Position numbers and translations under genes: made by a program | Notes under the pieces: model-generated | Database searches by the model: none | Seen by the model: the letters and a program-made list of their open reading frames with translations, nothing else | What the model was told of the DNA's origin: nothing | IMG/VR virus record: IMGVR_UViG_2531839555_000011 | Span: 1-15,814 of that record | Reading direction: 5' to 3' (one strand) | Source of the DNA: a virus | Taxonomy: Duplodnaviria; Heunggongvirae; Uroviricota; Caudoviricetes | DNA length: 15,814 bases | Part shown: positions 1,064 to 15,814 of the stretch, piece by piece | How the letters are laid out: the number at the start of each line of letters is the position of its first letter | Position numbering within the stretch: position 1 is the first letter of the stretch

Positions 1064-1193
1064 ATCAGTCAGGGAAATTTTGTAATTTCACGGAGGTTAA
1101 AATTCGAAGAGGCGGGCACTCCAAGAGATAAGAGACGGTAGGGATTTTGCTCCCCCTCCTGAATGCAATTTTTCGTATATATATACAAAACAG

Positions 1194-1211
1194 TGCGGGT
1201 TATGCGGGTTA
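1194..1211. repeat. Two tandem copies of TGCGGGTTA (reverse complement of TAACCCGCA)
   Basis: gTGCGGGTTATGCGGGTTAgcg read directly from the sequence; same 9-mer as the array at 1297-1348 in opposite orientation. Confidence 0.7.
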
Positions 1212-1296
1212 GCGAGTTATCTTCGCGTGCTAAGTATTTTTTATTATTTAATATCAATGCGTTGAAAAATAACATGTTCAAATGTTAGCCAAATCG

Positions 1297-1348
1297 TAAC
1301 CCGCAAGTCATTCAAAATAACCCGCAACCTCTCCCAAATAACCCGCAA
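1297..1348. repeat. Three direct copies of aaaTAACCCGCAA at 21-bp phasing (candidate protein-binding array)
   Basis: TAACCCGCAA at 1297-1306, 1318-1327 and 1339-1348, each preceded by an A-rich tract. The 21-bp period puts the sites on one face of the helix. Interpretation as integrase arm-type or excisionase sites is inference. Confidence 0.6.
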
Positions 1349-1376
1349 ACACATCAGGAAAGTGGGGCCAGTGATG

Positions 1377-1497
1377 CCACCGATCCCCTTTATTTGGGGA
1401 TCGCGAGTAAGCCCCAAAATCTGGGTGTTGCTCTTACTACCCAAACTACGGGTAGTTTCCGTAGTTTCATGGTCGAGTTGCAAATCTGCAACTCACC
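1377..1497. repeat. 121-bp structured direct repeat, copy B
   Basis: About 94% identical to 943-1063. Hairpins CGATCCCC-TTTATTT-GGGGATCG (perfect 8-bp stem), AAACTAC-GG-GTAGTTT and GAGTTGCA-AATC-TGCAACTC. Lies immediately right of the TAACCCGCAA array. Confidence 0.8.
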
Positions 1498-1833
1498 CAC
1501 CAGCCAACCCATTTTTGGGCCGTCGGGAATATCAACAAGTTAGCACAGAAATAACTCAGGCAGATACAAAACTCAATTTTGAGGTTTGCTTATTATTCAG
1601 TTGGTTAACATCCCTCAAAACTGAGGACTGTACCCAAAACTATTCTTATAGCTCCGGCCTCAGCCGTTGGCTTTTCCCGAAAATATCAGTCAGTTACGTT
1701 AACCGCTAATTTCTGCCTTTGGTGTGAATACTGTCGCTTTAACCTACGGTAATTGTTCTGCCTCGGTGCGTGTCACCGCCGTAACCGCGCCAGTAAAACC
1801 CACAGATTCGTGGTTTTCCTGAATATCAGGAAT

Positions 1834-2127
1834 CTACCGCCGCAACCGTTCCGGCTTCTTCCACTGGTAAGTATTTTTCGCGCTCTCCCTCCGTTGTTGA
1901 GAACGGCGACGGTATGCCAGCAACTCAAGGACTCTGGTTCGTATGTTGCGCATATCCACGCCGTTAAGCTCAATAACGTCACGGCGCATCACCTTAGCCA
2001 CCACACGCGCGTAATTTTCAGCGGTGACGGTATCCGGCTGCTTGGCCTCCGGTTTGCCTGTTGCCTGGCAGACTCCGGTAACGCAGCGAATTATTTTTAG
2101 TAGATCGGTTTCAGTCATTCTCGTCAT
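1834..2127 (-). CDS. Hypothetical basic 97-aa protein coupled to the large terminase
   Basis: ATG at 2127-2125 overlaps the terL stop (2126-2124) as ATGA. Arg/Lys-rich C-terminus. No family recognised. Confidence 0.45.
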   Translation of the reverse strand: MTRMTETDLLKIIRCVTGVCQATGKPEAKQPDTVTAENYARVVAKVMRRDVIELNGVDMRNIRTRVLELLAYRRRSQQRRESAKNTYQWKKPERLRR

Positions 2128-3785
2128 ACCCCATCAAATGCCGCTAGTCGCTCTTTCTGGCTGTCGCTCATATCAAATGCAAATTCCTCATGCTCAGCCT
2201 GGAATGTGCCAAACGCCATCAGCGCCGCAACGCTCGGGTCTATCTTGTTGGATGATTTTTTCTTGTTCGGCTTGATATTGGCGTTCGCGTCACTCTGCAT
2301 CACAACATTACTCATTGACCAGGCCAGCACCGGATCACCACGATGCACAATCACCTTCCGGTTAACAAAAACCTCGAACGATTTCGCCGCCGGACTGAAA
2401 CGAAGGTAGGTTTGAGGGAACGGCTCCACCTCAAAGCCTGCCCCCTGTAACTGCGTTCTCAGGTGCGTGGCGTTCCACGTATCAAAGCCCACCAGCCTGA
2501 TATTGAAATTCTCTGCATCCGCCATGATGTCATCACGGATACGGTCATAATCAATGCAGTCACCCGGTGTTGTGCGTATCCAGCCCGCCTTTGCCCACTG
2601 GCGATAGATGGCGCGGTTTTTATTGGCGGGGTTCTGTAGCTGAAATTCCGGCAGATAGTGACGAGAAACCAGCATAATGGTTTTACCAACCGGAAAGGCA
2701 TAGCACACGCTGGAGATGTCGCTTGTAGATGATAAATCAAGCCCCGCGTAACACTCCTGACCGTGTAAATCTTCCTCCGTGAACGTTCCGGCGCACTCAG
2801 CCCATGCACCGTTACCCATCCACGGCGTAGCCCCCTGACACCAGATATTGAATCGCTTGGTGAGCATTTCCACCCACTGCGACGGAATACCCCGCGCTTT
2901 CTGGATGGTTGAGGCCAGTTTTTCACGATCTACGGAAACATCGATATTGGGATTCGCCTTTATCCACATCGCCGGATCGTCAACCTCGCTTTCATCATCC
3001 AGCTCATAAATCAGAACGAACATGGATTCGTTCACCTCTTCACCATCCAGTATCTGGCAGCAATAGTCGTAGTGTTGTTTACAGGCTGAAACAACGTTGC
3101 TCCCCGATGTGGTGATGGCAAATAACAGCCCCTCCGGGCGTGCCCCCATTCCCAGTTCAAGCGCGGAATAAACCCCGTTGTCAGGGTGGAGGTGATATTC
3201 ATCCACAATGGCAAGACTCGGGTTTGTACCTTCAATGGTTGCTGCTTTTGCTGCCAGTGGCTTTAACAGACTGTTGGTTTTCGGGTGTATCACCTTGTGT
3301 GCCTGAATATTTACCCGCTTTCGTAACGGTCGGGATAAAAGGCACATCTGACGCGCATCATCAAACACGATCCGCGCCTGATCACGACTCACGGCGGCGG
3401 TGTAAATATCCTGCTGCCCGTTTTCCATAACCAGAAACCAGTTAGCCAGGATAGCGGCGACCGTGGATTTGGCATTTTTTCGCGGAACTTCAATGAATGC
3501 GCTGGTGTATTTGCGCCGTCCGGTGGCCTTAACCTTAAAGCCCAGGATGCACGCAAAGGCGAACTGCTGCCACGGCTCCAGCTCAATGGGGCTACCGCGC
3601 ATTGCGCCTTTTACGTGCGGACACACCCTGGAAAAGGCAATAAACCGCTCCACGACCTCCGGATCGAACGTGTAAAGGGGGTTTTCAAGGTCAGAAAAAT
3701 ACCGTTTAACGGCCTGTTTCAGTCGTTTACAGGCCGTAATTTTGCCGTTTTTTACGCCTTCTGCGTACTCATGCCAGGCGGTCAA
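2124..3785 (-). CDS. Terminase large subunit
   Basis: 553-aa ORF with N-terminal ATPase and C-terminal nuclease regions typical of phage large terminases. Apparent TTG start at 3785-3783 preceded by a GAGGA Shine-Dalgarno; overlaps the terS 3' end by 17 nt. Confidence 0.9.
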   Translation of the reverse strand: MTAWHEYAEGVKNGKITACKRLKQAVKRYFSDLENPLYTFDPEVVERFIAFSRVCPHVKGAMRGSPIELEPWQQFAFACILGFKVKATGRRKYTSAFIEVPRKNAKSTVAAILANWFLVMENGQQDIYTAAVSRDQARIVFDDARQMCLLSRPLRKRVNIQAHKVIHPKTNSLLKPLAAKAATIEGTNPSLAIVDEYHLHPDNGVYSALELGMGARPEGLLFAITTSGSNVVSACKQHYDYCCQILDGEEVNESMFVLIYELDDESEVDDPAMWIKANPNIDVSVDREKLASTIQKARGIPSQWVEMLTKRFNIWCQGATPWMGNGAWAECAGTFTEEDLHGQECYAGLDLSSTSDISSVCYAFPVGKTIMLVSRHYLPEFQLQNPANKNRAIYRQWAKAGWIRTTPGDCIDYDRIRDDIMADAENFNIRLVGFDTWNATHLRTQLQGAGFEVEPFPQTYLRFSPAAKSFEVFVNRKVIVHRGDPVLAWSMSNVVMQSDANANIKPNKKKSSNKIDPSVAALMAFGTFQAEHEEFAFDMSDSQKERLAAFDGV

Positions 3786-4125
3786 GCTCGTCCTCTTCCT
3801 CTGTTTCCGGTGGATTTCTGCGGCGGCTTACCGGGTCAAAACCCAGCAAAGAAGCCATTTTGATCATTATTCTTTCTGCGTCAGCCTTTGCGCTCAGGGC
3901 GGGGTTTCTGCTCTCGCTGCCCTGACTGTTAACAATGCTGAACCCGCGCGTCGCAAGGTCTTCGACGGCTTTGCGGTATATGGAGTAGTTAACACAATAC
4001 AGTTCCAGATTGCTCCAGTCGGCGGGGGTAAGGTCTTCCCGCCCGGAAAGCTGGCGCGATTTTTCCTTCCACTGCCTGACCGCGATTTCATCCAGGTAAG
4101 CGGGGGCTTTTGGTGGTCTTGCCAT
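3769..4125 (-). CDS. Terminase small subunit (P27-like)
   Basis: Start placed at the internal ATG (4125-4123) giving MARPPKAPAYLDEIA..., a typical P27-family small terminase N-terminus. The upstream part of the track ORF is a poly-Gly artefact of a G-run. Confidence 0.8.
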   Translation of the reverse strand: MARPPKAPAYLDEIAVRQWKEKSRQLSGREDLTPADWSNLELYCVNYSIYRKAVEDLATRGFSIVNSQGSESRNPALSAKADAERIMIKMASLLGFDPVSRRRNPPETEEEDELDRLA

Positions 4126-4412
4126 GTTTTTTTTCGCCCAATTATTTTCAAAAAAATTACCGTGCACAAAAATTTGAGGGGGCGGTCGGTGTCCGGCAGG
4201 GACGGTTTCGTCCTGAAAACCACCCCCACCCCCTCTGACGGCCTCACCAGCGATTGCGAAAACATTCCATGACCTCGCGGTCACGGTCGGTTAATCGCTT
4301 CGCTGTGGTGCGTTTTGTGCGCCCTGTCCTGTTGGCTTTGTGCTCTGTCTCCTGTGTCTTCCATGTGTCACGCTGCCTTATCAGTCCACGTATCAGCCTG
4401 GTTTGCTCCTGT
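4126..4412. other. Candidate cos / packaging-initiation region
   Basis: Non-coding gap between HNH and terS, the position cos occupies in HK97-type genomes. Contains a G/C-rich nested dyad, GAGGGGG (4176-4182) ... CCCCCTC (4229-4235) with an inner GGACG-gttt-CGTCC hairpin, next to A/T runs. Assignment is inference. Confidence 0.3.
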
Positions 4413-4853
4413 TCAGTCATCATCGCCATACATCCAGTCGTTACGGTGTGCCGCCCGTTCTTCCTGCTCGCGATACATGCCCGCTTTACGGTTTGCTTTC
4501 GTGGCTGGATCTTCCCGTGTCGTCTTACGGTTGTGGCACGTCTGGCACAATGCCTGGTGATTCCACTCAGGCCAGAAGAGAACATCACCGCCGCCATTGA
4601 TGGGAATGATGTGATCCACCACAAGAGCTGGCGTATAAATCCCCTTAGCCAGACAACGCACGCATAACGGGTTTTTGCTCAGGTACAGGGCGCGGTATTT
4701 GTCCCACTGTCGGGAATACCCGCGCGCGCGGCGGTGTCCCCGTCTGGCATCCTCTGCACGCCATGCAGCCCGCCTGTGCTCTTCACACTTGCCGGACTTC
4801 ACGCGCTTATTACAGCCAGGCTCAGTGCATCGCCTTAATGGTTGCCACGGCAT
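4413..4853 (-). CDS. HNH endonuclease (terminase-associated)
   Basis: 146 aa with Cys pairs and the H..N..H / CxxCHxxK pattern (VVDHIIPINGGGD...LCQTCHNRKT). Sits immediately upstream of terS as in HK97-like cos phages. Its ATG overlaps the connector stop by 1 nt. Confidence 0.9.
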   Translation of the reverse strand: MPWQPLRRCTEPGCNKRVKSGKCEEHRRAAWRAEDARRGHRRARGYSRQWDKYRALYLSKNPLCVRCLAKGIYTPALVVDHIIPINGGGDVLFWPEWNHQALCQTCHNRKTTREDPATKANRKAGMYREQEERAAHRNDWMYGDDD

Positions 4854-5155
4854 CAGTACACCCCTACGTCACGATAAACTGACCAGAGCGCAGAAATAGC
4901 CATAGGCAGTTCCGAGTGCTCCACTGGTGAAACCGCTTCCCGGTTCTCGTACAGGAAAGCGATGTACATCAGGCAACCAACACGCATTGCCGGGGTAAAT
5001 TCCAGCCCGTCTTCAAAACGTTTCCCGATATGCTTCTGGCAGGCTTCCAGCGCCGCATCGGTATACATTTTCAGAAGTTCGCCTTCACCGGATAAATCAT
5101 CATCAAGTCGAAGATGTGCCCTGACTTCATCAGGTGTAATTCTGGCTTCACTCAT
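4853..5155 (-). CDS. gp6-like head-tail connector / head completion protein
   Basis: Start at the internal ATG 5155-5153 with GGAGAA Shine-Dalgarno, 100 aa. Carries the family-typical LRLDDD...YENRE signature. Confidence 0.8.
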   Translation of the reverse strand: MSEARITPDEVRAHLRLDDDLSGEGELLKMYTDAALEACQKHIGKRFEDGLEFTPAMRVGCLMYIAFLYENREAVSPVEHSELPMAISALWSVYRDVGVY

Positions 5156-6362
5156 CTTTTCTCCCTTTAATTTCCACAGTCTGTTTCCATGCCTGGCTGA
5201 ACTCATCACCACCTTCACGCGGCGGCATACCCTCACGCTCACGGGCTTCGTTCGGATTCATGATCCCGTTCTTAATCCCTTTCTCATACGTGGCATAACG
5301 TTCGGTGGGTGTGGCGCGTAATAAATCGGCTGAATCAAACTCAACCAGATAACGGGTACCAGGTACGGGAGAAGCCACCAGCAAAGCGGCCTTGATTTGC
5401 TGTTCGAAGTTCGCCAGCCACGGGCGCATTGTCATGGTCAGAAACGCGCGGCTTGCCTCGCTGAAATTGCTGTAGGTGCTGTTGCTGTATTCCTGCAGAA
5501 AAATAGGCGATACGTTGAACATGCGGGCGATGTCTTCAATGGAGAAGCGACGGGAGGCCAGCCATTCCGCATCCTGGTTACTCATTCCCAGTTGCCTGTA
5601 ATCCATGCCCCCTTCAAGGATTGGCGTTTTTCCGGCATTTTTCGCCCCCTTGTAGCGTTCCAGAGCATCCAATGCCTGTTTACCTTTCACGCCGTCCAGC
5701 CATTCGCCTGACGTGATAATCCCTGCCGCCATCATGCCATCTTTCATAATGCTGGCTCCGTGGCGCTGTTGAGCAAGGCCAAGCCCAAGTGCCTCACGGC
5801 AAATCGTGACGGGGGAGCGCCCCAGAAAGCCATCATCCGAGGCATAGCGGAGATGCAGAACTTCTTCCTGTAAATACGTGCGCACCGTTCCTGTATAGGG
5901 TTCGGTGATGGTATAGCGGTATTTGTGTGCGCCTGTGCGTTCCGGTACAACACACCCCGGCGCATAAGGATGAAGTGATTTTGGCTGCCCGTCCTGCCCC
6001 CACTCAATAACCGCATAGGCGTTACCGTTCAGCAGGCAGTGACGCATCATTGTGCGTTTAAACTGGTAAGGTGTCTGGCACGAATTAGGCTGCTCATTCA
6101 GCAGAATATCTACCGGGTGACTGTCCAGCCATTCCCGCGCCTCCCTTCCCTTGTCATTACGTACCAGATACAGATAACACGGCATCGTGGCCACCGCCTC
6201 AGCGATGACAGAAACCGCATTCATCACTGCAGGCAATGATTCAGCCGTCCCGGCAGAAACATATTCTCCGGATCCGGTATTCGGTACGCCGGACAGCGCC
6301 AGAAAATCATCAATGGACAGGTTACGCTGCTCGCTTTTTTTACGACTAAAAGGCCACCACAT
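5148..6362 (-). CDS. Portal protein (HK97 family)
   Basis: Start placed at ATG 6362-6360 (MWWPFSRKK...), directly after the protease stop; the longer track ORF would overlap the protease by about 90 nt. About 404 aa with a portal-like central region. Confidence 0.9.
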   Translation of the reverse strand: MWWPFSRKKSEQRNLSIDDFLALSGVPNTGSGEYVSAGTAESLPAVMNAVSVIAEAVATMPCYLYLVRNDKGREAREWLDSHPVDILLNEQPNSCQTPYQFKRTMMRHCLLNGNAYAVIEWGQDGQPKSLHPYAPGCVVPERTGAHKYRYTITEPYTGTVRTYLQEEVLHLRYASDDGFLGRSPVTICREALGLGLAQQRHGASIMKDGMMAAGIITSGEWLDGVKGKQALDALERYKGAKNAGKTPILEGGMDYRQLGMSNQDAEWLASRRFSIEDIARMFNVSPIFLQEYSNSTYSNFSEASRAFLTMTMRPWLANFEQQIKAALLVASPVPGTRYLVEFDSADLLRATPTERYATYEKGIKNGIMNPNEAREREGMPPREGGDEFSQAWKQTVEIKGRKDE

Positions 6363-6363
6363 A

Positions 6364-6924
6364 TCACAACCCCGCCAGCTCAGACCAGCGATGACGATTA
6401 TTTCCTGTCGGGCATAATTCAGGGTGCTGTGCAAACAACGAACGGTGGGCAATCTCCACGCCAGATTCTGGATAAGCAGGCATCGACGTTATTGTGATTT
6501 CACGGAGTTCAGCGGCGGTTACGGTACGCAAATACGGTTTTTGCGCGATACTCCACTCCTCGCATAATGCGCGAAAACCAAAGCTCATTCCTGTAATGTC
6601 GCCACGCTCCACCAGCGTAAGCACATCTTTTCCAAGCTGGGTATCCGGCGGTGTCAGTTCAAAACGTAACCCGGTGTTATCCTCAGTCAGTACCAGAGTG
6701 CCGGATTTGGTGCGCCCCAGCAGTTGGGTATAGTCATGCTCATACAGGCAGCGCACATCATTACCCGCCGCCAGATAGTCAGCAAAAGCCCCCGGCGTGA
6801 ACTGTTCGCGGAATTCGTCCCAGATAATTTCTGAAAGGCTGTTCCAGCGAACGGCATACCCCACCAGCTTTTTATTGCTGGCGGTCAGTTCAGATGTGCG
6901 GATTTCAAAATCGGTGTTTTTCAT
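6364..6924 (-). CDS. Prohead maturation protease (HK97 family)
   Basis: 186 aa, GGAGT Shine-Dalgarno; sequence pattern (GYAVRWN...GAFADYL...LYEHD...GMSFGF...ITSMPAYP) typical of HK97-type prohead proteases. Confidence 0.9.
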   Translation of the reverse strand: MKNTDFEIRTSELTASNKKLVGYAVRWNSLSEIIWDEFREQFTPGAFADYLAAGNDVRCLYEHDYTQLLGRTKSGTLVLTEDNTGLRFELTPPDTQLGKDVLTLVERGDITGMSFGFRALCEEWSIAQKPYLRTVTAAELREITITSMPAYPESGVEIAHRSLFAQHPELCPTGNNRHRWSELAGL

Positions 6925-6930
6925 CGGTGT

Positions 6931-6966
6931 ACTCCATAAAGCTGAAAAAGGAGGCCGCAGCCTCCT
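6931..6966 (-). terminator. Possible partial terminator/attenuator between capsid and protease genes
   Basis: GC hairpin AGGAGGC-cgca-GCCTCCT (6949-6966) followed on the minus strand by TTTT, 13 nt after the capsid stop. Could tune capsid to protease/portal stoichiometry. Confidence 0.35.
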
Positions 6967-6978
6967 CCTTACTCATGA

Positions 6979-8148
6979 CTAGCCAGCTTTCATTTCCAGA
7001 ATTTTGATGGCGTTTGAATCCACCACACCACCGCCCAGATATTTATCCGTGTGGACCTTGTAGAATCCGGGTTCAGTAATGTTGTCCGGTCGGGTGCGAA
7101 TCCCTGTTACATGATCAACGATGAAATAACCACGACTGAAATCGCCAACCGCTAGCGGTGCTTTTCCTGCGCCGATGTCCGGCATGGACTCCAGGCAGTA
7201 AACAGGACGACCAAGCAACATATCCGGCGCACCTTCTTTAAGGCTGTCGCGCCAGATATAATCGCCGTTCTCATTTTTCAGCTTCTGTAGTGTCCCTGCC
7301 GTGCCCGAGTTCATCACCCAGACGGCATTTTTGCGGTATTTCGCTTTCAGCTTGTAGAGAATGTCGATCAGTTCGTCCGCTGTAATGGCGGTTCCACTTG
7401 CCGCTACTATTTTTTCAATGGTGCCAAAAGCGCGGGTTTTGTCACTGGTCGCCGCACGGGTGTAAGCCATGAAGCCTTTCGGCTTGCCGTTACCGTCGCC
7501 ATTAACAAAATCATCCTCTTCGGTGCTGGCGAACGTGTCGGCAATTTCGGAGGATAACCAGCCCAGAATATCCACCTCTGAAAAATCCAGGATTTCCTGC
7601 GTGGTTTTCGGGTAGGCGTAGATCGGATTCAGCTTGATGGTTACGCGTTCAATTTTCGGGGTGTTGGTTTCACTGCGTGCGCTGCCTTCTGTGCCTCGTC
7701 CTACAGTTGCGCCGCCAGTGGAAACCAGTTTCTGAAACTCATTTGATTTTGCGGTCTTCACGGTCGCGATCACGCGCATAACACTGTCATCCTGTAGCTG
7801 GCGCATGACTTCGCGATCAAGCTCAGGAATTACGGTATATCCGCCATCCCTGCCGCTGTCAGTGCTGGTGGACAGTGATCGCACATCTCCGGTTACGATG
7901 TAGTTACGCAATTCATCAGATGATAATTTCTGGATGCCCGTTCCTGGCTTGCTGCGTTCTTCATCAGCCACAGACTCGAGGCGGGAAATTTCTGTGTCGA
8001 GGGCATCAGCTTTTGCACGCAGTTCATCAAACTGTTTGCCTTCTTCAGCGTTCAGACTACGGTTTTCACTGTCGGCTTTTTCCAGCAGGGATCGCATCTG
8101 GTTTTTCAGGGCGTTTTTTTGCTGGCGGAGTTCGATTAATTTCTTCAT
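6979..8148 (-). CDS. Major capsid protein (HK97 fold) with N-terminal scaffolding-like coiled coil
   Basis: 389 aa. N-terminal about 100 aa is charged and coiled-coil-like (delta-domain-like); C-terminal core has HK97 MCP-like motifs (AVGDFSRGY). Confidence 0.9.
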   Translation of the reverse strand: MKKLIELRQQKNALKNQMRSLLEKADSENRSLNAEEGKQFDELRAKADALDTEISRLESVADEERSKPGTGIQKLSSDELRNYIVTGDVRSLSTSTDSGRDGGYTVIPELDREVMRQLQDDSVMRVIATVKTAKSNEFQKLVSTGGATVGRGTEGSARSETNTPKIERVTIKLNPIYAYPKTTQEILDFSEVDILGWLSSEIADTFASTEEDDFVNGDGNGKPKGFMAYTRAATSDKTRAFGTIEKIVAASGTAITADELIDILYKLKAKYRKNAVWVMNSGTAGTLQKLKNENGDYIWRDSLKEGAPDMLLGRPVYCLESMPDIGAGKAPLAVGDFSRGYFIVDHVTGIRTRPDNITEPGFYKVHTDKYLGGGVVDSNAIKILEMKAG

Positions 8149-8375
8149 GAAGGTTTTCTCGTATTGGTTAAGATTCAGGACGTGAAACCAACACGGAGGG
8201 AGCGCCGCCCGACACTCTCGGCATCTCGCAGATCAACCCGGCATCGCGCAGGGGGTCAGGCGGCATTGTGGCGGCTCACGTCTGAGTGCCACACGCCAAC
8301 ATATACATAAAAATCAGTATGTAAATATCAGCCAGAATCACTGAACAGCCAGAAACAACCACGAACAAATAATTT

Positions 8376-8410
8376 ACAAAACCTGAAAAGAAAACCCGGA
8401 AAAATCCGGG
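8376..8410 (-). terminator. Rho-independent terminator ending the replication operon
   Basis: On the minus strand, CCCGG-atttttt-CCGGG followed by TTTTCTTTTCAGGTTTTG, 12 nt after the stop of the 82-aa gene. Confidence 0.6.
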
Positions 8411-8421
8411 CCTTTATCGCT

Positions 8422-8670
8422 TTACTGTTTCATGGAATCCCGCATTCTGCGTCTTATTTTCCACAGATATTCGATCATCGCTTCCACCTGCTCACGGTTG
8501 GTTGCGAAAATTTCCCCGGTCAGTGAGCTGCGCAGAAAATCATGATGATCCACAACAAATAACGCATCGGAAGAAAGCAGACGGCGATATTTTTTTGCTG
8601 TCGTGGTTTCCAGATCATCAATACCATGAAACTTTTTATGTTGCTGAACTTCTTCAAATGTCACTGGCAT
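8422..8670 (-). CDS. Hypothetical 82-aa protein
   Basis: ATG at 8670-8668 with a strong AGGGGG Shine-Dalgarno at 5-nt spacing; followed by a terminator. No family recognised. Confidence 0.6.
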   Translation of the reverse strand: MPVTFEEVQQHKKFHGIDDLETTTAKKYRRLLSSDALFVVDHHDFLRSSLTGEIFATNREQVEAMIEYLWKIRRRMRDSMKQ

Positions 8671-8687
8671 GTATCCCCCTGTTATCG

Positions 8688-9110
8688 CTAAAAGGGTATG
8701 TTATCCCCATATGGATCATCATTCCCCGCCTGTTGCTTAGCCCTATTTAGAGCGTCAGTAGCCTGGCCCTGCTGGCCTTTTTTGCCACCAGGTCGCGCCG
8801 TTCTGGCACTGATTACGCTGTCTGCGATAACCTGCCAGCCCTGCCGCGTTTCCCCGTTCTGTCCGGTCCACTGGCTCACCTGCATGTTACCCGCCACGCT
8901 CAGGAGTTCACCCTTGCGGTGCTTTGCCAGTGCTTCGGCCTGTCTGCCAAACGCCAGGACGGATAACCACATCGTCGCCGTTCCGTCATCTGCCTGGCTG
9001 CACGGCAGGGTGACCGCCATGCTCGCCATAGCCATTTGTGTGCCCTTGCTGGTGGTCTTTAACTGTGGGTCAGCCACCAGCCGCCCGTAAGCCGCTATCT
9101 GTGCTGTCAT
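8688..9110 (-). CDS. Single-stranded DNA-binding protein-like
   Basis: 140 aa, OB-fold-like N-terminus, Gly/Gln-rich linker and an acidic C-terminal tip DDPYGDNIPF resembling the SSB ...DDDIPF tail. GGAGAG Shine-Dalgarno; ATGA overlap with the upstream 81-aa gene. Confidence 0.75.
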   Translation of the reverse strand: MTAQIAAYGRLVADPQLKTTSKGTQMAMASMAVTLPCSQADDGTATMWLSVLAFGRQAEALAKHRKGELLSVAGNMQVSQWTGQNGETRQGWQVIADSVISARTARPGGKKGQQGQATDALNRAKQQAGNDDPYGDNIPF

Positions 9111-9352
9111 GCTGTCTGCTCTCCGGTTTTAACGTTGATGGTTGTCACCTGTTCCGCTTCGGCAATCTCCCGTTCTGTCAGCGTGGCAAAGTTTGCAGCT
9201 GCCGTTGTCATGAATGAGCTAATCAGTTCGGGATGTGCTTTCGCATATCCTTCCCCGGCGTTGCGGTCGATGATTTTTATCGACACCCTTAACCAGTGTT
9301 CCGTCAAATCAAGGGCGTGCGATTGTGATTTTTTTGTGTGCTTCGCTGTCAT
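9107..9352 (-). CDS. Hypothetical 81-aa protein
   Basis: ORF translationally coupled (ATGA) to the SSB-like gene; weak Shine-Dalgarno. No family recognised. Confidence 0.5.
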   Translation of the reverse strand: MTAKHTKKSQSHALDLTEHWLRVSIKIIDRNAGEGYAKAHPELISSFMTTAAANFATLTEREIAEAEQVTTINVKTGEQTA

Positions 9353-9402
9353 AGGCTTTATCTCACAGCAGTAAATTAAAATTTTTGCGTTTTAACCCTT
9401 CA

Positions 9403-9626
9403 CCTGTTCACCTTTTGATATTTTATCTTTTAATTCATAATGTTAAGGGGTGAACAGTTTCACAAAAACTATTCACCAACTGTTCACCACTGTTCACCCT
9501 TGAAGCTCAATAAACAATCAAAAAGGTGAACAGTGAATAGTTTGGTGAACAGTTCATAAATAACTGTTCACCCTATAATATACTGATACAAAAGATATTT
9601 ATGACAGGGTGAACAGTGGTGAACAG
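9403..9626. repeat. Iteron-type replication origin (9 copies of GGTGAACAG/CTGTTCACC)
   Basis: Exact 9-mers at 9403, 9449, 9480, 9490, 9525, 9544, 9564, 9608 and 9618 in both orientations plus partial copies, with an AT-rich tract at 9574-9606, immediately 3' of the primase-helicase gene. Confidence 0.8.
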
Positions 9627-9639
9627 TTATTCCATAAGT

Positions 9640-11457
9640 TTAATTTTTGCTATCGTCATTAGTGACCGATACACATGATGGCATCCAGTCTTCTGATTCC
9701 TCCGTCAGTGTCACGTTTGAACGCAAACCGTGCTTCGTTTTCCGTTTCATATACTCCCTGCCATATTCCGCCATTGCCCCCGGCATATCTTTACCGAAGC
9801 GCGTCAGTGTTACAGGTTTACCAAACCCATGTGCCTTCATATAAGCCAGATAGGCATGATAGAGATACCTGCGCGGGCTGAATGGCACAATTTCAGCATT
9901 ACCCACTAACAGGCCATCACACATTACCGACGCCATGAGATAGCCGCAGAAGTCCACCAGCGAATCCCCCTCTCGCTTTATCGCCAGTGCTTCTTCAGAT
10001 TTCTGCTGCTCATATAACAGGCGTCTGGCTTCGTCCTGGTCAGCAAACCGTGTAAGCAGATGGCGAATCACTACCGCCAGCTCACCTTCTATTTTTTCCG
10101 CCAGCATTGGATCACGTTCGTTCTCCGGTACAACTTCCGAAAAATTGAATATCACCCGACGACGTGAGATCCCCCCGCTGCGGTCACTGAATGACATGGC
10201 GTTATTGTTAACCGCCAGCACTACTGCCGGAATACGCGTTGAGTAGGGGGCTTTGTGTTTCGGGTCAATTGCCACCTTGTCACCGCCTGTAATAGCCTTA
10301 ATCCCTGCCCCATCACCAGCGTAGCGGGTCATATCCGGCATGATAATCAGCGAAAAGCCAACCACTAACGCGCGTTCCCTTGCATCTTCCAGCGCCTTCA
10401 TGCTTGCCGATACTGTGTTGGCCTTACCCGCCAGCATGGTGCAAATCTCCGCCATCACGCTTTTACCACTTCCCCCTGGACCTGTTACCTCAATGAATAA
10501 CTGCCAGTCGTACCGGTTCGCCAGCACCATGAATAATGCAGCCAGTACGCGATCCGCCTTGCGGTCATTCTCAGCCACCGAACGGCGTAACCACTTCCAG
10601 AAATTCGGCGCATGTGTTGCCAGCGTTTCCCCCTCTGCTGGTGGGCTGAAAGGTAATTCACTGGCAATTAACAACCAGTCGTTTTTGTTATGCTCCCGAA
10701 AATTACCTGTTCTGGTATCAAATACCCCGTTACTGAATCCAATCAGGTTACGGGCTGTATTCCCCATTACAGGCAAACTTAACTTCATGGTATCGACCGC
10801 CGATTTAATGGCGTTCTGCGAATAGCTGATCTCCGCATCAATGAAAATCTGCGCCATAGCTCGCTGTAATTCTTTATCCTGTACTGGCTCCCATACAACG
10901 CCGTTGTAATGGTGAACAGTGTCAGAGTCGGCATGAATCGCCAGTTCACCGCCATAATGTGCCAGGAGAACTTCGCCGCGTTGACTTGCTCCCATCTGGT
11001 TAAGCGCCAGTGATGAAGCGTTATCGTCTTTTACCCGCTCTTTTTTCTTTACAGGCAGTTCAACTACCTTTTTCTTTTCCGCCAGCTCTGCCCGTTCACG
11101 TTCCAGATATTCGCGCCAGTTCTCCCGTTTCTGGCTGTGCATTCCTTCAGAGTAATAATCAGCATCCCTGACACCTGCCGCTGCCAGTTTCTGCCCGATG
11201 GTATTAACAAGCCCCGGACGCAATAACCCCGCCTGATAGAGACGCACGCGATAGCGTCCGTCCGGTACGATTTGCAGGTTGTCCAGTTCGGCAAGTTGTT
11301 GCTCTCCAAGCCAGACAGGAGGCACGTTATCGCCAGCCAGTCGCCCGTCCTGTTCCTGCCACTGTTTCGCATGTGCCCACGCATCACTACCCGCAAAAAT
11401 GATGACTTCCGTCATTTTGTCACGCGGCTGGTGTTTTAAATTTGGCGCTTTTTTCAT
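9640..11457 (-). CDS. Replication initiator: primase / SF3 helicase
   Basis: Start at ATG 11457-11455 (MKKAPNLK...) with GGAGAG Shine-Dalgarno; Walker A GPGGSGKS and Walker B-like LIIMPD; about 605 aa. Domain architecture consistent with P4/PICI primase-helicases. Confidence 0.85.
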   Translation of the reverse strand: MKKAPNLKHQPRDKMTEVIIFAGSDAWAHAKQWQEQDGRLAGDNVPPVWLGEQQLAELDNLQIVPDGRYRVRLYQAGLLRPGLVNTIGQKLAAAGVRDADYYSEGMHSQKRENWREYLERERAELAEKKKVVELPVKKKERVKDDNASSLALNQMGASQRGEVLLAHYGGELAIHADSDTVHHYNGVVWEPVQDKELQRAMAQIFIDAEISYSQNAIKSAVDTMKLSLPVMGNTARNLIGFSNGVFDTRTGNFREHNKNDWLLIASELPFSPPAEGETLATHAPNFWKWLRRSVAENDRKADRVLAALFMVLANRYDWQLFIEVTGPGGSGKSVMAEICTMLAGKANTVSASMKALEDARERALVVGFSLIIMPDMTRYAGDGAGIKAITGGDKVAIDPKHKAPYSTRIPAVVLAVNNNAMSFSDRSGGISRRRVIFNFSEVVPENERDPMLAEKIEGELAVVIRHLLTRFADQDEARRLLYEQQKSEEALAIKREGDSLVDFCGYLMASVMCDGLLVGNAEIVPFSPRRYLYHAYLAYMKAHGFGKPVTLTRFGKDMPGAMAEYGREYMKRKTKHGLRSNVTLTEESEDWMPSCVSVTNDDSKN

Positions 11458-11753
11458 TTCTGCTCTCTCCACGCGGCAATCATGTTTTTCAGTTCCTGTA
11501 GTTTTTTATCAACATCCATACATGACACATGGTTATTTCTGGAAAGCGGGATTTCCCGCCGGAATCTGCAAATAAAGATCTCCACGTTCAGCGAACTATG
11601 AAATGAATAGCCATCACGAATAAAATAAACACGGTCAAACATCAGCTCTTTTACCGTTACTCTGTTACCGTTCTTATCCAGATAAATAGCGCCGGGGATA
11701 ATTTTTGGGTGTGCATAACCGCTGGCAGTCAAGCCAGATAAATATGTTCTCAT
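11454..11753 (-). CDS. Hypothetical 99-aa protein coupled to the primase
   Basis: ATGA overlap with the primase start. About 38% GC, lower than the element backbone. No family recognised. Confidence 0.55.
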   Translation of the reverse strand: MRTYLSGLTASGYAHPKIIPGAIYLDKNGNRVTVKELMFDRVYFIRDGYSFHSSLNVEIFICRFRREIPLSRNNHVSCMDVDKKLQELKNMIAAWREQK

Positions 11754-11759
11754 GATTAT

Positions 11760-12080
11760 TTATCCCCGATTTGAATCAGTATTCGCTTTCTTTATGGCAT
11801 TTAATGCATCTGTGGCATTATCAATGGTGCACCGTAACGAAATATCAAACTGCCCAAGCATTGCCAGTAACAAGCCAATATTCCCCATGTCAATGCGCAT
11901 AGCCTTTTCGTCATATTCCTCATTTTCTGACGCATACCACATCAGGTTACCAATTGACGCAACAGCCATTGATATATTGTCAGTAGCCGCATCCGCAGCA
12001 GAATAAACCTTTTTAGCAATATCATGCTCACAGTTAAAATGCGGATTAATCAGGTACTGGTAATTGGTCATGTCAGGCAT
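11760..12080 (-). CDS. Hypothetical 106-aa acidic protein
   Basis: Strong AGGGGGG Shine-Dalgarno before ATG 12080-12078; AT-rich coding sequence. No family recognised. Confidence 0.55.
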   Translation of the reverse strand: MPDMTNYQYLINPHFNCEHDIAKKVYSAADAATDNISMAVASIGNLMWYASENEEYDEKAMRIDMGNIGLLLAMLGQFDISLRCTIDNATDALNAIKKANTDSNRG

Positions 12081-12276
12081 GGCACCCCCCCTGACGAATA
12101 CGGGCGGCGAATACCATCACGCAGCCAGCCGGGGATTGCTGGCGTGCTTCCTGTTCGCTGGTGGCCTCAATGGTAATCACGCGCGGTTGTGCCGTGCTCA
12201 GGGCGATAAAACGCCAGATGTATTTATTCAGGTTGTGCGAGTCCCGCCCTTGCGGGTGTGTGGTATGATTTAACAT
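12073..12276 (-). CDS. Possible 67-aa first gene of the leftward operon
   Basis: Internal ATG 12276-12274 of a longer spurious ORF, preceded by GAGGT at 5-nt spacing; overlaps the start of the 106-aa gene by 8 nt. Composition unusual, so low confidence. Confidence 0.4.
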   Translation of the reverse strand: MLNHTTHPQGRDSHNLNKYIWRFIALSTAQPRVITIEATSEQEARQQSPAGCVMVFAARIRQGGCHA

Positions 12277-12312
12277 AGCTACCTCGATACTTCTGCTATC
12301 GTTGGTGGTTAG

Positions 12313-12356
12313 ACGCCCCGTTACTGCTCCTACAGTGCGGGGCGTTGTTTTTTGTG
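12313..12356 (+). terminator. Hairpin plus T-tract in plus orientation (leader structure or terminator)
   Basis: ACGCCCCG..ACTG..CAGT..CGGGGCGT followed by TGTTTTTTGTG. It lies in the 5' leader of the leftward operon and upstream of the Arc-like gene; function ambiguous. Confidence 0.35.
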
Positions 12357-12370
12357 TAATGGTAAGTACA

Positions 12371-12419
12371 ATGGTAATTACCATGTAACTATAGTAATTA
12401 AGGGTAATTACCATGTCAA
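12371..12419. promoter_or_regulatory. Palindromic operators overlapping divergent promoters
   Basis: ATGGTAATTACCAT (12371-12384) and GGTAATTACCAT (12403-12414) 30 bp apart, plus degenerate half-sites. On the minus strand TTGACA (12419-12414), a 17-nt spacer and TACTAT (12396-12391) form a sigma70-like promoter with the second operator inside the spacer. Confidence 0.5.
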
Positions 12420-12586
12420 CACCATTAGAGAAACGATCGCCACCATACCAAATGCGACTACCAGAAGAATTTAGAGCGCAACTTGAGGAGGCAGCCAAGG
12501 CAGACGGCGACACCTCATTAGCTACTTGGATTAAACGAATACTCCGCAAAGAATTACAACAGCGCGGTATCGAGCCCAAAGGCTGA
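12413..12586 (+). CDS. Arc/Mnt-like ribbon-helix-helix repressor (57 aa)
   Basis: Translated by hand: MSTPLEKRSPPYQMRLPEEFRAQLEEAAKADGDTSLATWIKRILRKELQQRGIEPKG. The P-x-Y/F-x-M/L-R-L/W-P...IxxRIxxxL pattern matches the P22 Arc beta-strand plus two helices. Too short for the 60-aa ORF track; only plus-strand gene in the element. Confidence 0.7.
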   Translation: MSTPLEKRSPPYQMRLPEEFRAQLEEAAKADGDTSLATWIKRILRKELQQRGIEPKG

Positions 12587-12680
12587 CAGCCAACCAGCAA
12601 GCCAGCACACTGATCACATTGCCCACCAGCCGCAAATGTGGCATTGTTGGTGATGCGTTCAAGTTTAGTGTGTATCCATT

Positions 12681-12709
12681 GGCGACCGCCCCCGGTCGCC
12701 TTTGTTTTA
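12681..12709 (+). terminator. Rho-independent terminator (possibly bidirectional)
   Basis: Perfect 8-bp stem GGCGACCG-cccc-CGGTCGCC followed by TTTGTTTTAT; lies between the converging Arc-like and ORF6N genes. Confidence 0.7.
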
Positions 12710-13390
12710 TGCGCGATCATGTGCCGCCTCCCACTCATATTTATCGAAATCAATCTGCCCCATCGCATCTACCAGCCGTACCGCCGGACGCAGAACTTTG
12801 AGTTCCTTCTTGCGGAGATTCATTCCATTACTGCCCTGTGAGCCATGAAACTGCTTAGAATGCTTGTCCGCACGAGTCACGGCGTTTTGCGCATCAGTAA
12901 CCGGCATGGCGATCAGTTCTTCGAGCGACGGCAGATCCACATGATGGAAAGTGACAAACTCCGGGCAACGGAAATAAGCTTTCACGAGCTGGCGCTGTAC
13001 CTGCCAGGCCAAATCATCGTTAAACGGTTTGGTCAGCAGCAGATAGCCTGATTCCGTAATCAGTGTTACGCGGCCACGTATCGGACTGTTCATTTTTTTG
13101 CCAGGGCGTTTAATGCCCCTGTCTAAATATCCAGCCCCTCCCCATTCGACCTCTGACGCGCCGACAATAAAAAAGTCCTCACCATCAATGAAGCGAGTGC
13201 GATTACGCTGAAAAGTCTTTTTAGCCGTGTCTTTAGGTCGCTGGTGCGCGGTATCGATCATTGCGAACGTCACCACGCGTTGCCCGTGAAATTCGACGGC
13301 AGGAAACTGTTTAAGCTGCACGCTAATATCGCTTTTACTGGCAACAGGGTGAGCGAATCCCTGCCCGTTAAGGGCATTAATATTTTTCAT
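12707..13390 (-). CDS. ORF6N-domain antirepressor-like protein
   Basis: 227 aa. N-terminal GQRVVTF..ID..HQRP...FQRNRTRFIDGEDFF ... TESGYLLLTKPFNDDLAWQVQRQLVKAYFR matches the ORF6N signature of phage antirepressors as I recall it. 20 nt downstream of the AlpA-like gene. Confidence 0.75.
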   Translation of the reverse strand: MKNINALNGQGFAHPVASKSDISVQLKQFPAVEFHGQRVVTFAMIDTAHQRPKDTAKKTFQRNRTRFIDGEDFFIVGASEVEWGGAGYLDRGIKRPGKKMNSPIRGRVTLITESGYLLLTKPFNDDLAWQVQRQLVKAYFRCPEFVTFHHVDLPSLEELIAMPVTDAQNAVTRADKHSKQFHGSQGSNGMNLRKKELKVLRPAVRLVDAMGQIDFDKYEWEAAHDRA

Positions 13391-13410
13391 CTCTGATTAC
13401 CTGTGGTTAA

Positions 13411-13695
13411 TTAAGCAGATTTGCGGCTGTACGGGTTATTGACGTTTTCCACGGCAGGCGGATTACGAACCCACCAGAGCACATCCGAAAGAAGCCAGGC
13501 ACAGCTGTTGCGGCCAAAGTGACAGCGCGGCGGGAAGCGCCCCTGCTGTTCCATCTTCCAGCGGCTCGAACGAGAAAGACTGGTGATCTCGCTGCATTCA
13601 TCTTCGCGGATTCGGCGATCGAACTTGAAGCCGTACTCCTCCAGAATGGTGCGGCGTTGTTCAGGATTTGGCGGGGTAAAGGTGATAATTTGCAT
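13411..13695 (-). CDS. alpA: AlpA-family regulator/excisionase-like protein
   Basis: Start at internal ATG 13695-13693 with GGAGG Shine-Dalgarno. C-terminal SLSRSSRWKMEQQGRFPPRCHFGRNSCAWLLSDVLWWV matches the AlpA helix-turn-helix pattern (LSRSTIYR..G.FP.P...G.R...W...E...W). Confidence 0.8.
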   Translation of the reverse strand: MQIITFTPPNPEQRRTILEEYGFKFDRRIREDECSEITSLSRSSRWKMEQQGRFPPRCHFGRNSCAWLLSDVLWWVRNPPAVENVNNPYSRKSA

Positions 13696-13790
13696 GTTGC
13701 CTCCACTGTTTCTAAGTTTGTGGGGGCTATTGTTATCCTTGTGATTGGATGTCACACTAGACGAAAATTAAATTGTTTTGACCACCAAGA

Positions 13791-14594
13791 TTAAGGAAGA
13801 ATTTTTCTATCCTGAAGTTCTGACCTGATTTTTTCTATAGAAGAAATTGAGAAGATTTTTTCTATATTTGGCTTTACGGTTTGCGCTATCTGCGTTGAGT
13901 CATACTCTCCGTTCGGAAACACAGCCACAGCAAGCACGCCATTGGTGACGCATGCCCCGCGAGATTTAGCCCAGATCATCAAATCAACCACGGGGAAAAG
14001 TGAATAATCGTATACCTTTTTTTTAATTGTTTCCCATGACTGGTATGTTTTTTCCTTTTCTTTTATTTTTAATTCCTCACGCCAATTCTTGAGGTTTTTT
14101 TCAAACACATCAATCAATAAATCATCCGGGCGTGACAAATCAACTTTAATAAAAAGGTCATTTGGTTCCAAAAATGAGCTAACACTTGTAAATGAATGGT
14201 AAACTAAATTTTCAGCCGTTCCCGTAAAATTATTTTCCATATAATTATCTACAGCATCTTTCATATAAATAAAGTCTTCAATGGACATTGGTCGTAACGC
14301 AACCCCACCAGACAAAACACCTTCTCTTTTAATAGGAAGTTTAAACGCATCATAGAAGTACGTAGCTCTATCAATCGCATTAGCGACCGCGCCATTTCCA
14401 AGTATCCTTCCTACTTCATCGTTATTTGTAAGAGGTTCATTATAAAAAGACCCGCCATATCGATAGAAGTTTTCAAGCATGTCATATCTAACAACCAACT
14501 GATAAAATAAGTCTTTATCTGACATGCCAATAAATTGAGTGTAGTTATCTAAATCAAACCATGTTGGCAAATCTTTTTTGTGGCTAATTCTCAT
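13791..14594 (-). CDS. AT-rich 267-aa cargo protein of unknown function, coupled to int
   Basis: 804-nt ORF; 60-nt samples give about 25-45% GC against about 50% in int. ATG 14594-14592 overlaps the int stop as ATGA. No recognisable catalytic or DNA-binding motifs. Confidence 0.7.
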   Translation of the reverse strand: MRISHKKDLPTWFDLDNYTQFIGMSDKDLFYQLVVRYDMLENFYRYGGSFYNEPLTNNDEVGRILGNGAVANAIDRATYFYDAFKLPIKREGVLSGGVALRPMSIEDFIYMKDAVDNYMENNFTGTAENLVYHSFTSVSSFLEPNDLFIKVDLSRPDDLLIDVFEKNLKNWREELKIKEKEKTYQSWETIKKKVYDYSLFPVVDLMIWAKSRGACVTNGVLAVAVFPNGEYDSTQIAQTVKPNIEKIFSISSIEKIRSELQDRKILP

Positions 14595-15814
14595 TTTTCA
14601 CCAGCCTTTAAAATAACGATATTAGAGTGATTACCCGCGAGAAGTTCTAAGCGGTCATACCACTTGTTCAGCGCGTCCAGCTTCTCCGGTAAGTAAAGAC
14701 TACGGTTATAAATCGCCATAACTCCCGGCAAGGCATGGCCCAACAGCAGCTCGACTATATGCGGTGCTATACCCATATTGTTTAGCCCCGTAGAAAACGT
14801 CCGACGCAGATCGTGAAGTGTCCACGGCTCGTTATGGTGAAAATCTTTAAAAAGCCTGCGCCCTTTCAATGATACAGCCTGACGGGTACGATCTTCGCCC
14901 AGTAACAAACCTGTTTTCCCTGTCTCGCGCTTTAACTCTTCCAGCCACGGGCGTATAGCTTCAGGTATCGACCTCACGATTTTCTCTCGGGTTTTGCTAT
15001 GCTCTTTCGGTACAGTCCAAATCCACGATGTAAAATCCCACTCTGACCATCGAGAAAGGCGAACTTCCATCGTTCGCGCACCAAAAAGCACCAGCATTTT
15101 GAGCAGACGTGAATAATACGGCTGCTGATCATCGCTATCTGTACAGCGCCACACATCAGCCAGCTCGCTATCTGACAATACGCGATCACGTTGACCAGAT
15201 GGCTGGCCTACATCCTGAATGGTGAGAAAGGCCAGAGCATCACTGGCAGCATAACGGCGAACCTTGCAGAAACGTAACGCCTGTTTAGAAATCTGGAACA
15301 TGCGGCCGGCGGTCATGGGTTTAGTCTGGTTTATTTCGTCAAAACAGGCCACCCAATGGCGGGTTTCACATCTGGTGATCGGATAACGACCAAGGCGCGG
15401 GTAAATATGCTTGCGTAGCTGCGCCCTCACCAACGCCTCATCACTGCGCTTTCTCCTGGCGTAATTCACCAACCAATATTCCAGGGCGTCTTTAACCGTT
15501 ACAGGCTTAAGCGTTTCTTCTGTGCTCAGCTCAATCTCAGTTTTCGGATCAAGCCCACCAGCCAGCCACTGGCGACACTGTTCCCGCTTTTCTCGCGCAA
15601 GTTTTAGCGGCATATCAGGGTAACGGCCAAGCGTTAAACGTTCGAGTTTGCTACCCCTTCCTCCCAACCGGTATGAAAATACCCAGCTAACGTTACCTTG
15701 CTTCGAGACCTTAACGCTTAGCCCCTCACCATCGGCAATCATGATCGGCGCTTCACGCTCAGAACCCAGCAATGCTTTTAGCTTTTTGTCGCTCAGTTTG
15801 TTTGTGCCAGCCAT
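14591..15814 (-). CDS. int: Tyrosine integrase, P4-like family
   Basis: 407 aa starting at the window edge (ATG 15814-15812). N-terminal arm-binding-like region (GEGLSVKVSKQGNVSWVFSYRLGG...), C-terminal catalytic residues (HDLRRT, LLGHA, a Tyr near the C-terminus). Confidence 0.93.
   Translation of the reverse strand: MAGTNKLSDKKLKALLGSEREAPIMIADGEGLSVKVSKQGNVSWVFSYRLGGRGSKLERLTLGRYPDMPLKLAREKREQCRQWLAGGLDPKTEIELSTEETLKPVTVKDALEYWLVNYARRKRSDEALVRAQLRKHIYPRLGRYPITRCETRHWVACFDEINQTKPMTAGRMFQISKQALRFCKVRRYAASDALAFLTIQDVGQPSGQRDRVLSDSELADVWRCTDSDDQQPYYSRLLKMLVLFGARTMEVRLSRWSEWDFTSWIWTVPKEHSKTREKIVRSIPEAIRPWLEELKRETGKTGLLLGEDRTRQAVSLKGRRLFKDFHHNEPWTLHDLRRTFSTGLNNMGIAPHIVELLLGHALPGVMAIYNRSLYLPEKLDALNKWYDRLELLAGNHSNIVILKAGEK

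Follow-up and report, generated by a model that had tools for sequence, protein, structure and literature searches.

Positions 1 to 15,814 of IMG/VR record IMGVR_UViG_2531839555_000011 (15,814 nucleotides, hereafter the window) are a satellite of Escherichia coli, namely a capsid-forming phage-inducible chromosomal island (cf-PICI). Here, I show that the three small genes opening its leftward replication operon, just before the primase, are conserved and under purifying selection, and that they form a mosaic of two modules, an Icd-like gene on the one side and a pair made of orf106 and a DUF4222 gene on the other, not one unit. By its profile and sequence matches, the first gene is a member of the Icd/Kil family, related to Icd of phage P1 and to the C-terminus of Kil/Eta of the satellite P4; the third is a DUF4222 paralogue of the regulator RgdR, sitting in the identical slot; and the second, orf106, is the sole truly uncharacterised gene of the trio, belonging to a tiny unnamed family. 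The reading favoured here, with slightly better than even confidence, is that the trio represents the 5' part of an early operon built like the P4 left operon, in which Icd would act as a gate and division blocker and would be followed by an acidic/basic accessory pair produced along with the primase. The family assignments and the architecture are observations; the functions discussed below are inferred.

Layout and coding status of the three genes

The leftward operon opens, as regards translation, with the Icd-like gene (12073-12276, minus strand, ATG start, 67 aa). This gene is overlapped over 8 nt (12073-12080) by orf106 (11760-12080, minus strand, ATG start, 106 aa), which is followed after a gap of 6 nt (11754-11759) by the DUF4222 gene (11454-11753, minus strand, ATG start, 99 aa), the stop codon of which overlaps the primase ATG at 11457 in an ATGA junction. 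The gene sizes and junctions are as described in an earlier note made from the letters of this DNA, and the same three genes with an identical primase start are annotated by RefSeq in near-identical E. coli loci. The GC content is 57.8% in the Icd-like gene, 41.1% in orf106, 41.3% in the DUF4222 gene and 51.1% in the primase; the earlier note was right in that the second and third genes are AT-richer than the primase, yet its figure of 37-38% was too low. Nor did its strong Shine-Dalgarno sequences for these two genes hold up: a G-run 5-11 nt upstream of orf106 and a GGGGA about 11 nt upstream of the DUF4222 gene are both moderate, and the best motif of the trio, GAGGT, belongs to the Icd-like gene.

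The ratio of non-synonymous to synonymous polymorphism (pN/pS), computed against comparison loci that are 93-95% identical, is 0.34 for the Icd-like gene, 0.21 for orf106 and 0.25 for the DUF4222 gene with locus L027, and 0.29 for orf106 and 0.20 for the DUF4222 gene with locus L028. Intact homologues reach down to 24-64% identity. Given these ratios (0.20-0.34) and the intact divergent homologues, the members of the trio are real protein-coding genes. A sequence search of the PDB with all three proteins returned nothing below an E value of 0.8, PADLOC recognised no defence family among them, and the paper on EcCIMP1 contains nothing on these genes.

The Icd-like gene

The 67-aa protein matches NCBIfam model NF033153 over residues 19-62 with 69.8 bits (cutoff 25, E 1.5e-19); the same model scores P1 Icd at 52.6 bits and the P4 open reading frame (ORF) at 73.9 bits. 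Residues 19-62 form the core of the protein, preceded by an N-terminal extension (residues 1-18) which is conserved separately. BLASTP aligns it with residues 11-50 of P1 Icd at 35% identity, the residues W14, R15, F16, E32, E34, A35, R36, P40, G42, F46, A48 and R49 being conserved with P1 Icd, whose residues 12-51 are the core sufficient for FtsZ interaction and filamentation (PMC11897509). In P4, the Icd-like part (E 8e-21) lies at residues 85-132 of the 'cI ORF', the 3' part of which is kil/eta. In RefSeq relatives, the gene carries the 'Icd-like' annotation. PHROG labels the family 'transcriptional repressor', a label that agrees with the product name on the outdated record of the P4 cI ORF and probably stems from it.

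The Icd-like gene always comes first behind the promoter, and in most related loci the gene after it overlaps it by 8 or 11 nt. In the P1 record, likewise, ant1 overlaps icd, and the annotation calls icd 'apparently required' for ant to be expressed; in the left operon of P4, it is the translation of eta/kil that keeps termination from occurring, and Kil is lethal to the cell (PMC10111431). A tblastn search of 50,697 phage records yielded a single match for the Icd-like protein, in a 'phage' of 16.5 kb which is in fact another cf-PICI, and none for either orf106 or the DUF4222 allele of the window. According to a 2026 survey of Enterobacter, most of its P4-like, PICI and cf-PICI elements encode an Icd-like protein (PMC13612085).

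The DUF4222 gene and the adjoining primase

The third protein matches Pfam DUF4222 (PF13973) over residues 16-67 with 61.7 bits (gathering threshold 27, E 4.8e-17). It is basic (99 aa, pI 9.6) and shares 31% identity with RgdR (ECs1581). Its AlphaFold2 (AF2) model has a mean predicted local distance difference test score (pLDDT) of 74.6, rising to about 88 for residues 21-65, and predicts a small barrel of four strands, then a short helix and, at the C-terminus, a long one. RgdR is a protein of 99 aa with a pI of 10; it binds DNA non-specifically, and its deletion or expression affects type III secretion and LEE1 transcription as well as motility and the binding of Congo red, effects known only for ECs1581 and close variants of it (PMC3378721). 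Its RGD motif has been linked to activation of the type III secretion system. This motif is missing from the window protein, which reads P20-G21-A22 at residues 20-22 where RgdR has RGD; the absence speaks against the particular phenotype of RgdR and leaves membership of the DUF4222 family untouched.

A case in point for the shared slot is the prophage-like element Sp7 of E. coli Sakai, which is a cf-PICI with the order integrase, YlcI-like, Icd-like, three small ORFs, ECs1581, primase, single-stranded DNA-binding protein (SSB), PchE, capsid and terminase genes, ECs1581 lying directly before its primase and overlapping it. The RgdR locus (Sakai Sp7 / CP-933C, OI-51) thus resembles the window in carrying a basic DUF4222 protein of 99 aa whose gene overlaps a cf-PICI primase, and differs in that RgdR is preceded by a gene of a 70-80-aa family, here called MW, whereas the window DUF4222 gene is preceded by orf106.

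The primase of the window (9640-11457, minus strand) is a D5/P4-type primase-helicase of 605 aa from the ATG at 11457, with D5_N, DUF5906 and Pox_D5 domains (phrog_864, E 4e-192), and is coupled in translation to the DUF4222 gene. Its residues 1-140 (11040-11457, minus strand; phrog_2850) are conserved across primases that otherwise differ in type, the 610-aa D5 type of the window and the 710-aa DUF927 type of Sakai Sp7 and locus L008; the conserved unit may be DUF4222 together with this N-terminal domain of about 140 residues.

The orf106 family

orf106 has no match in Pfam, NCBIfam or PADLOC, and its only strong PHROG match (phrog_15327, E 1e-69) carries a function-unknown label. A HMMER scan of 1.84 billion cluster representatives gave 15 matches, about seven of which are distinct full-length relatives (24-64% identity), distinct meaning separate 50% clusters. 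The earlier note had stated that none of the three genes matches a family it recognised; this holds for orf106, and not of the first (NF033153) and third (PF13973) genes. The protein is acidic (pI 4.5), and in its AF2 model (pLDDT 78.7) an N-terminal helix is accompanied by a long helical hairpin, with helices at residues 19-51 and 58-105. Foldseek against PDB and BFVD returned generic helical hairpins (EsxB, a spectrin repeat, a tape measure protein), none at E <= 0.001. An apparent 13-fold match to the 1222-aa protein P0058 was rejected as a resemblance in tetratricopeptide (TPR) repeat motif and not homology.

Homology to replication accessory proteins, which would have spoken against a helper-interference or regulatory module, was looked for and none was found, P4 Cnr and epsilon being negative. 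In detail, orf106 gave no BLASTP alignment with P4 epsilon, an hhalign probability of 0.37% and no Pfam match; the orf106 family gave an hhalign probability of 0.08 with P4 Cnr; and the window DUF4222 protein gave no BLASTP alignment with P4 ORF106, that is, Cnr (DUF5375), and an hhalign probability of 0.05. A remote-homology test between the orf106 and MW families was negative as well.

Two modules rather than one

Of the complete E. coli genomes compared (5426), 1337 contain at least a portion of the trio, which is in essentially every case the Icd-like gene, and the full trio (at least 80% matched) is present in 466. Icd-only matches, as far as the rows sampled go, stop at query positions of about 620-637, which is the icd/orf106 junction, i.e. 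there is a breakpoint at the 3' end of icd, and the same Icd allele elsewhere precedes one to five differing small ORFs. A second comparison concerns 80 IMG/VR loci gathered by Icd alignment, 73 of which reach the primase. All 73 complete operons show the order Icd, one to five small ORFs, DUF4222, primase, and in all 73 the DUF4222 gene lies directly before the primase with an overlap of 4 nt that uses the ATG start. With few exceptions, the gene 5-6 nt ahead of DUF4222 is either orf106 (about 30 loci) or a member of the unrelated-looking MW family of 70-80 aa. The pairing is strict: orf106 goes with the window type of DUF4222 in 32 of 32 loci and MW with the RgdR type in 40 of 40, and the length of the primase varies inside each pairing (610/712 aa, or 466-708 aa). 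Fixed pairings with variable primases make genes 2 and 3 a cassette, with recombination points at the 3' end of icd and near the 5' end of the primase. Co-variation of the trio as a unit, the comparative check put forward in the earlier note, was therefore not seen: the Icd-like gene recombines independently, and only genes 2 and 3 are co-inherited.

The MW proteins (L007 3103-3336, L008 3549-3782, L011 23057-23299, L017 5594-5827 and L021 5337-5549) have 70-80 aa, are acidic and helical, carry the motif xMWLxSLPDNERD, have no Pfam match, and alternate with orf106 before DUF4222 or the primase. MW may be the unnamed 75-aa family found in 61% of P4-like elements (PMC8628076). Another arrangement is present in other Enterobacterales (L014, L019, L020, L022 and L023; e.g. 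L020 5632-5970), where a conserved ORF of 112-130 aa (MISPIKFNELEKR...) and a replication-type protein of 454-586 aa come after the orf106-family gene in place of DUF4222 and a D5 primase, the 112-aa protein having no Pfam match.

The head of the operon

Upstream of the Icd-like gene lies a sigma-70-like promoter (TTGACA-17-TACTAT, 12391-12419, minus strand), a consensus match at 10 of 12 positions, with a predicted start at about 12384, so that the leader would be about 108 nt long. The palindrome ATGGTAATTACCAT, read from the sequence, occurs twice, at 12371-12384 and 12401-12414 (13/14 matching); its copies flank the -10 and overlap the -35, and the second also reaches into the start codon of a divergent gene for an Arc/YlcI-YnfO-like ribbon-helix-helix protein (12413-12586, plus strand, 57 aa). 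This gene matches Pfam Arc (E 0.006) and YlcI_YnfO_N (E 0.001), both below the curated cutoffs, and the Arc-like repressor family phrog_228 (E 3e-7), and its relatives at the same position are annotated YlcI/YnfO. Its product is a putative repressor of the leftward promoter, and the ATGGTAATTACCAT copies are probably its operators. The ATGGTAATTACCAT region is hypervariable among related elements, resembling an immunity-specificity region.

The immunity RNAs of P1 and P4 have no counterpart here: neither C4 RNA (RF01695), isrK nor any other Rfam family was found in the window at the gathering score, nor between 12050 and 12720 at E <= 10; two weak Rfam matches were judged to be due to chance. 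As a control, the Rfam C4 model does detect C4 in P1, in P4 and in locus L009.

What the window does contain is a candidate gene for a cis-antisense RNA opposite the icd leader (12259-12353, plus strand), predicted and without an Rfam family match. An extended -10 (TGTGG-TATGAT, 12259-12269, plus strand) lies inside icd codons 3-6, about 45 nt upstream of a hairpin; transcription is predicted to start at about 12275-12277, and an anti-Shine-Dalgarno ACCTC stands at 12281-12285. The terminator hairpin covers 12312-12346, with a T-tract to 12353 on the plus strand, and a terminator scan also calls the plus strand. Its sequence is hypervariable among relatives and its structure is kept: double-sided compensatory changes occur in 9 of the 13 pairs across 20 distinct variants. 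Stability favours the plus strand in 30 of 30 variants (mean -24.8 vs -18.3 kcal/mol), as do the paired cells (95.4%, with 36 G.U cells, on the plus strand vs 81.9% on the minus strand). The 3' flank of the hairpin is T-rich on the plus strand (4-7 U in 10 nt) and is the invariant UCUAACCACC on the minus strand. A reading of the hairpin as a sense-strand mRNA element or terminator was accordingly rejected, pairing and U-tract favouring the plus strand. The TGnTAT of the -10 is invariant across 86 loci, with changes only at the two least critical positions of the hexamer (TATAAT, TATTAT, TATAGT). I propose, on these sequence features, a plus-strand RNA (about 12276-12353, some 78 nt long) with full complementarity to the icd Shine-Dalgarno sequence and start codon. 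The logic would recall type I toxin-antitoxin systems, in which an RNA with its own promoter and terminator is complementary to the Shine-Dalgarno sequence and start of a growth-inhibiting protein; unlike these, Icd is no membrane peptide, the window RNA is a prediction and control by a protein repressor is also present.

Further peculiarities of this region are worth recording. A stretch of the mosaic relative L009 (4803-5160, minus strand), compared with window positions 12220-12350, shares the leader and the first 18 icd codons; in L009, an isrK-like and a C4 RNA (Rfam 75 and 82 bits) are inserted, followed by a different Icd-like core, and the leader with the first 18 icd codons is therefore a separable module. 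The icd frame is open for 231 codons upstream (12073-12768, minus strand), running antisense through the YlcI-like gene; many relatives are alike, which recalls P4 eta. A recurring 'KTKAT..GRQ' peptide in this open frame is the translation of a bidirectional terminator hairpin (12681-12700), so the conservation is probably at the DNA level rather than at the protein level. Finally, a second small GC hairpin, CCCGCCCTTGCGGG (12243-12256, icd codons 7-11), lies just upstream of the proposed antisense -10 and gave a chance match to Rfam CRISPR-DR57.

Comparison with the operons of P1 and P4

In the P1 immI operon (c4 RNA - icd - ant1/2), as in the window, a small Icd-family protein comes first and is overlapped by the next gene, a sign of translational coupling, and in P1 the ribosome-binding site of icd is the target of RNA-level immunity. 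Unlike in P1, the window has small ORFs and a primase downstream instead of an antirepressor, and has no C4 RNA. The P4 left operon has the order PLE - CI RNA - kil/eta - epsilon - orf151 - cnr - alpha. It shares with the window an Icd-like Kil followed by small ORFs and then a primase, with AlpA and a Bro/ANT-type gene upstream, and 8-nt overlaps, in P4 between the Icd-like ORF, epsilon and orf151. None of the small ORFs of the window, however, is related to epsilon, orf151 or Cnr; the CI/isrK RNAs are missing; between icd and the Bro-type gene stands a divergent YlcI/Arc-like gene; and the window element has capsids of its own, as predicted from its genes. P4 epsilon/Ash is a helper derepressor and cnr, before alpha, controls copy number, in positions analogous to those of the window small genes; as far as sequences can tell, the analogy to epsilon and Cnr is one of position only.

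A tentative mode of action and its alternatives

How might such an operon work? In the resting state, the icd ribosome-binding site is probably silenced; the silencers would be the putative Arc/YlcI-like repressor at the palindromes and possibly the candidate cis-antisense RNA, and not a C4/CI RNA. The start of orf106 8 nt inside icd suggests that, once the operon is transcribed, translation of Icd would gate all downstream expression, in the manner of icd with ant in P1 and of kil/eta with the left operon in P4. After derepression, Icd would also block the Z-ring, whereby the induced cell would remain a single compartment. DUF4222 would be a small cofactor associated with nucleic acid or a polymerase, would be produced in a fixed ratio with the primase-helicase and may act at the satellite origin or at promoters, the pleiotropy of RgdR on host promoters being conceivably a side effect of such DUF4222-type activity. 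orf106 may be a partner or modulator of DUF4222.

Several points weigh against this scheme. Identity with P1 Icd is no more than 35% over 43 residues, and P1 Icd Y24, a predicted FtsZ contact, is not conserved in the 67-aa protein. The antisense promoter falls inside a block that is conserved throughout, and hence its conservation is not independent evidence. Transfer of the RgdR function to the window DUF4222 protein is weak, given PGA for RGD and the low identity. Window-type DUF4222 alleles are 92-100% identical, essentially one lineage, so that linkage, and not function, may be what associates orf106 with DUF4222. Members of the orf106 family in Hafnia, Rahnella, Superficieibacter and Rosenbergiella stand behind Icd-like genes and have no DUF4222 gene beside them, and in an Acerihabitans metagenome-assembled genome, DUF4222 precedes orf106 ahead of a different primase type. 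Moreover, locus L005 has the same primase without DUF4222, which is therefore dispensable at least in that locus.

A bolder proposal, made tentatively and with confidence well short of even, joins two possibilities: that in this large PICI/cf-PICI lineage an undescribed cis-antisense small RNA of about 78 nt, lying over the icd ribosome-binding site, has replaced the C4/CI immunity RNA and thereby gates the replication operon, and that orf106 and DUF4222 are a co-evolving acidic/basic pair which tunes the primase-helicase or RNA polymerase.

It is possible, if doubtful, that DUF4222 with orf106 is instead a dedicated replication accessory, functionally comparable to P4 Cnr, which would set origin binding or copy number by contact with the primase-helicase and have no transcriptional role of its own. 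Primase adjacency with the 4-nt overlap in every one of the 73 operons, across primase types, speaks for it, as do the basic character of DUF4222 and the equivalent place before alpha of P4 cnr, which controls copy number. Yet DUF4222 has no sequence or profile similarity to Cnr, its paralogue RgdR alters host transcription without satellite replication, L005 does without it, and in L024 and L025 it is an orf106-family gene, not DUF4222, that adjoins a different primase type. Conversely, DUF4222 might be an RNA-polymerase-binding cofactor (CarD/CdnL-like or like the Tudor domain of the UvrD C-terminal domain) that reprograms promoters of the host and of the satellite, in which case the coupling of DUF4222 to the primase would be a mere timing device. 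This I hold to be rather unlikely.

The earlier note had suggested that the trio may be a small undescribed module, in a slot that in satellites often holds helper-interference or regulatory proteins. The slot is indeed one for small proteins with regulatory or host-directed roles; it is improbable, though, that the three genes constitute a single undescribed module for helper interference or regulation, evolving as a unit. The slot equals the P4 epsilon/Ash position, orf106 is without a known family and the packing is tight, but two of the three genes fall in described families, Icd-like genes outnumber full trios (1337 vs 466 genomes) with a sharp breakpoint at the 3' end of icd, one to five ORFs stand between Icd and DUF4222, and orf106 has no similarity to epsilon. 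Least of all would one expect orf106 and DUF4222 to be a toxin-antitoxin or anti-defence cargo pair unrelated to replication: one is acidic and the other basic, both have about 100 aa, and their genes are co-inherited, separated by 6 nt and in a cassette AT-richer than its flanks, but PADLOC, Pfam and NCBIfam hold no toxin or antitoxin signature for them, and a fixed place in the replication operon, not in the accessory hotspot on the integrase side, is atypical for cargo.

The element and its other genes

The satellite nature of the element, presumed in the earlier note, is borne out by its gene set, which comprises integrase, AlpA, primase, SSB, an HK97-type capsid protein, prohead protease, portal and the large terminase (TerL), in agreement with published cf-PICIs (10.1101/2022.09.08.507074); cf-PICIs of the EcCIEDL933 type have all eight of these genes in common with it. 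Among the major ORFs of the 15.8-kb window, none was recognised as a tail or lysis gene, in a scan that did not extend to the smaller ORFs near the left end. On the integrase side are the integrase (14591-15814), a DUF6387 gene between integrase and AlpA (13791-14594, minus strand), AlpA (13411-13755) and an ORF6N/antirepressor-type gene (12707-13390). The DUF6387 gene is AT-rich (34-37% GC), occupies the usual accessory/defence hotspot of satellites and has no PADLOC match.

Implications for satellites and their hosts

Genes 1 and 3 are added members of known families, so that the novelty is modest overall, and Icd-like and YlcI/YnfO genes have already been recorded as accessory genes of cf-PICI-type elements (PMC13612085). 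In the cf-PICI literature cited here, the small genes between icd and primase are given no role in the life cycle of the satellite itself. Nevertheless, the satellites whose replication operon is opened by Icd-like and DUF4222 genes are a very common class in E. coli, this Icd allele being present in 1337 of 5426 complete genomes. The variable slot defined here (orf106 or MW plus none to four further ORFs) is a place to seek satellite-specific proteins directed at host or helper, and the antisense RNA, if real, would be a new way of silencing a toxic first gene.

To sum up, RgdR is known only as a regulator of type III secretion in enterohaemorrhagic E. coli, and its adjacency to a primase suggests a native function that can be tested. 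Should the orf106/DUF4222 pair indeed tune the primase-helicase or RNA polymerase, 'virulence regulators' of the RgdR type would gain a native function in satellite replication.

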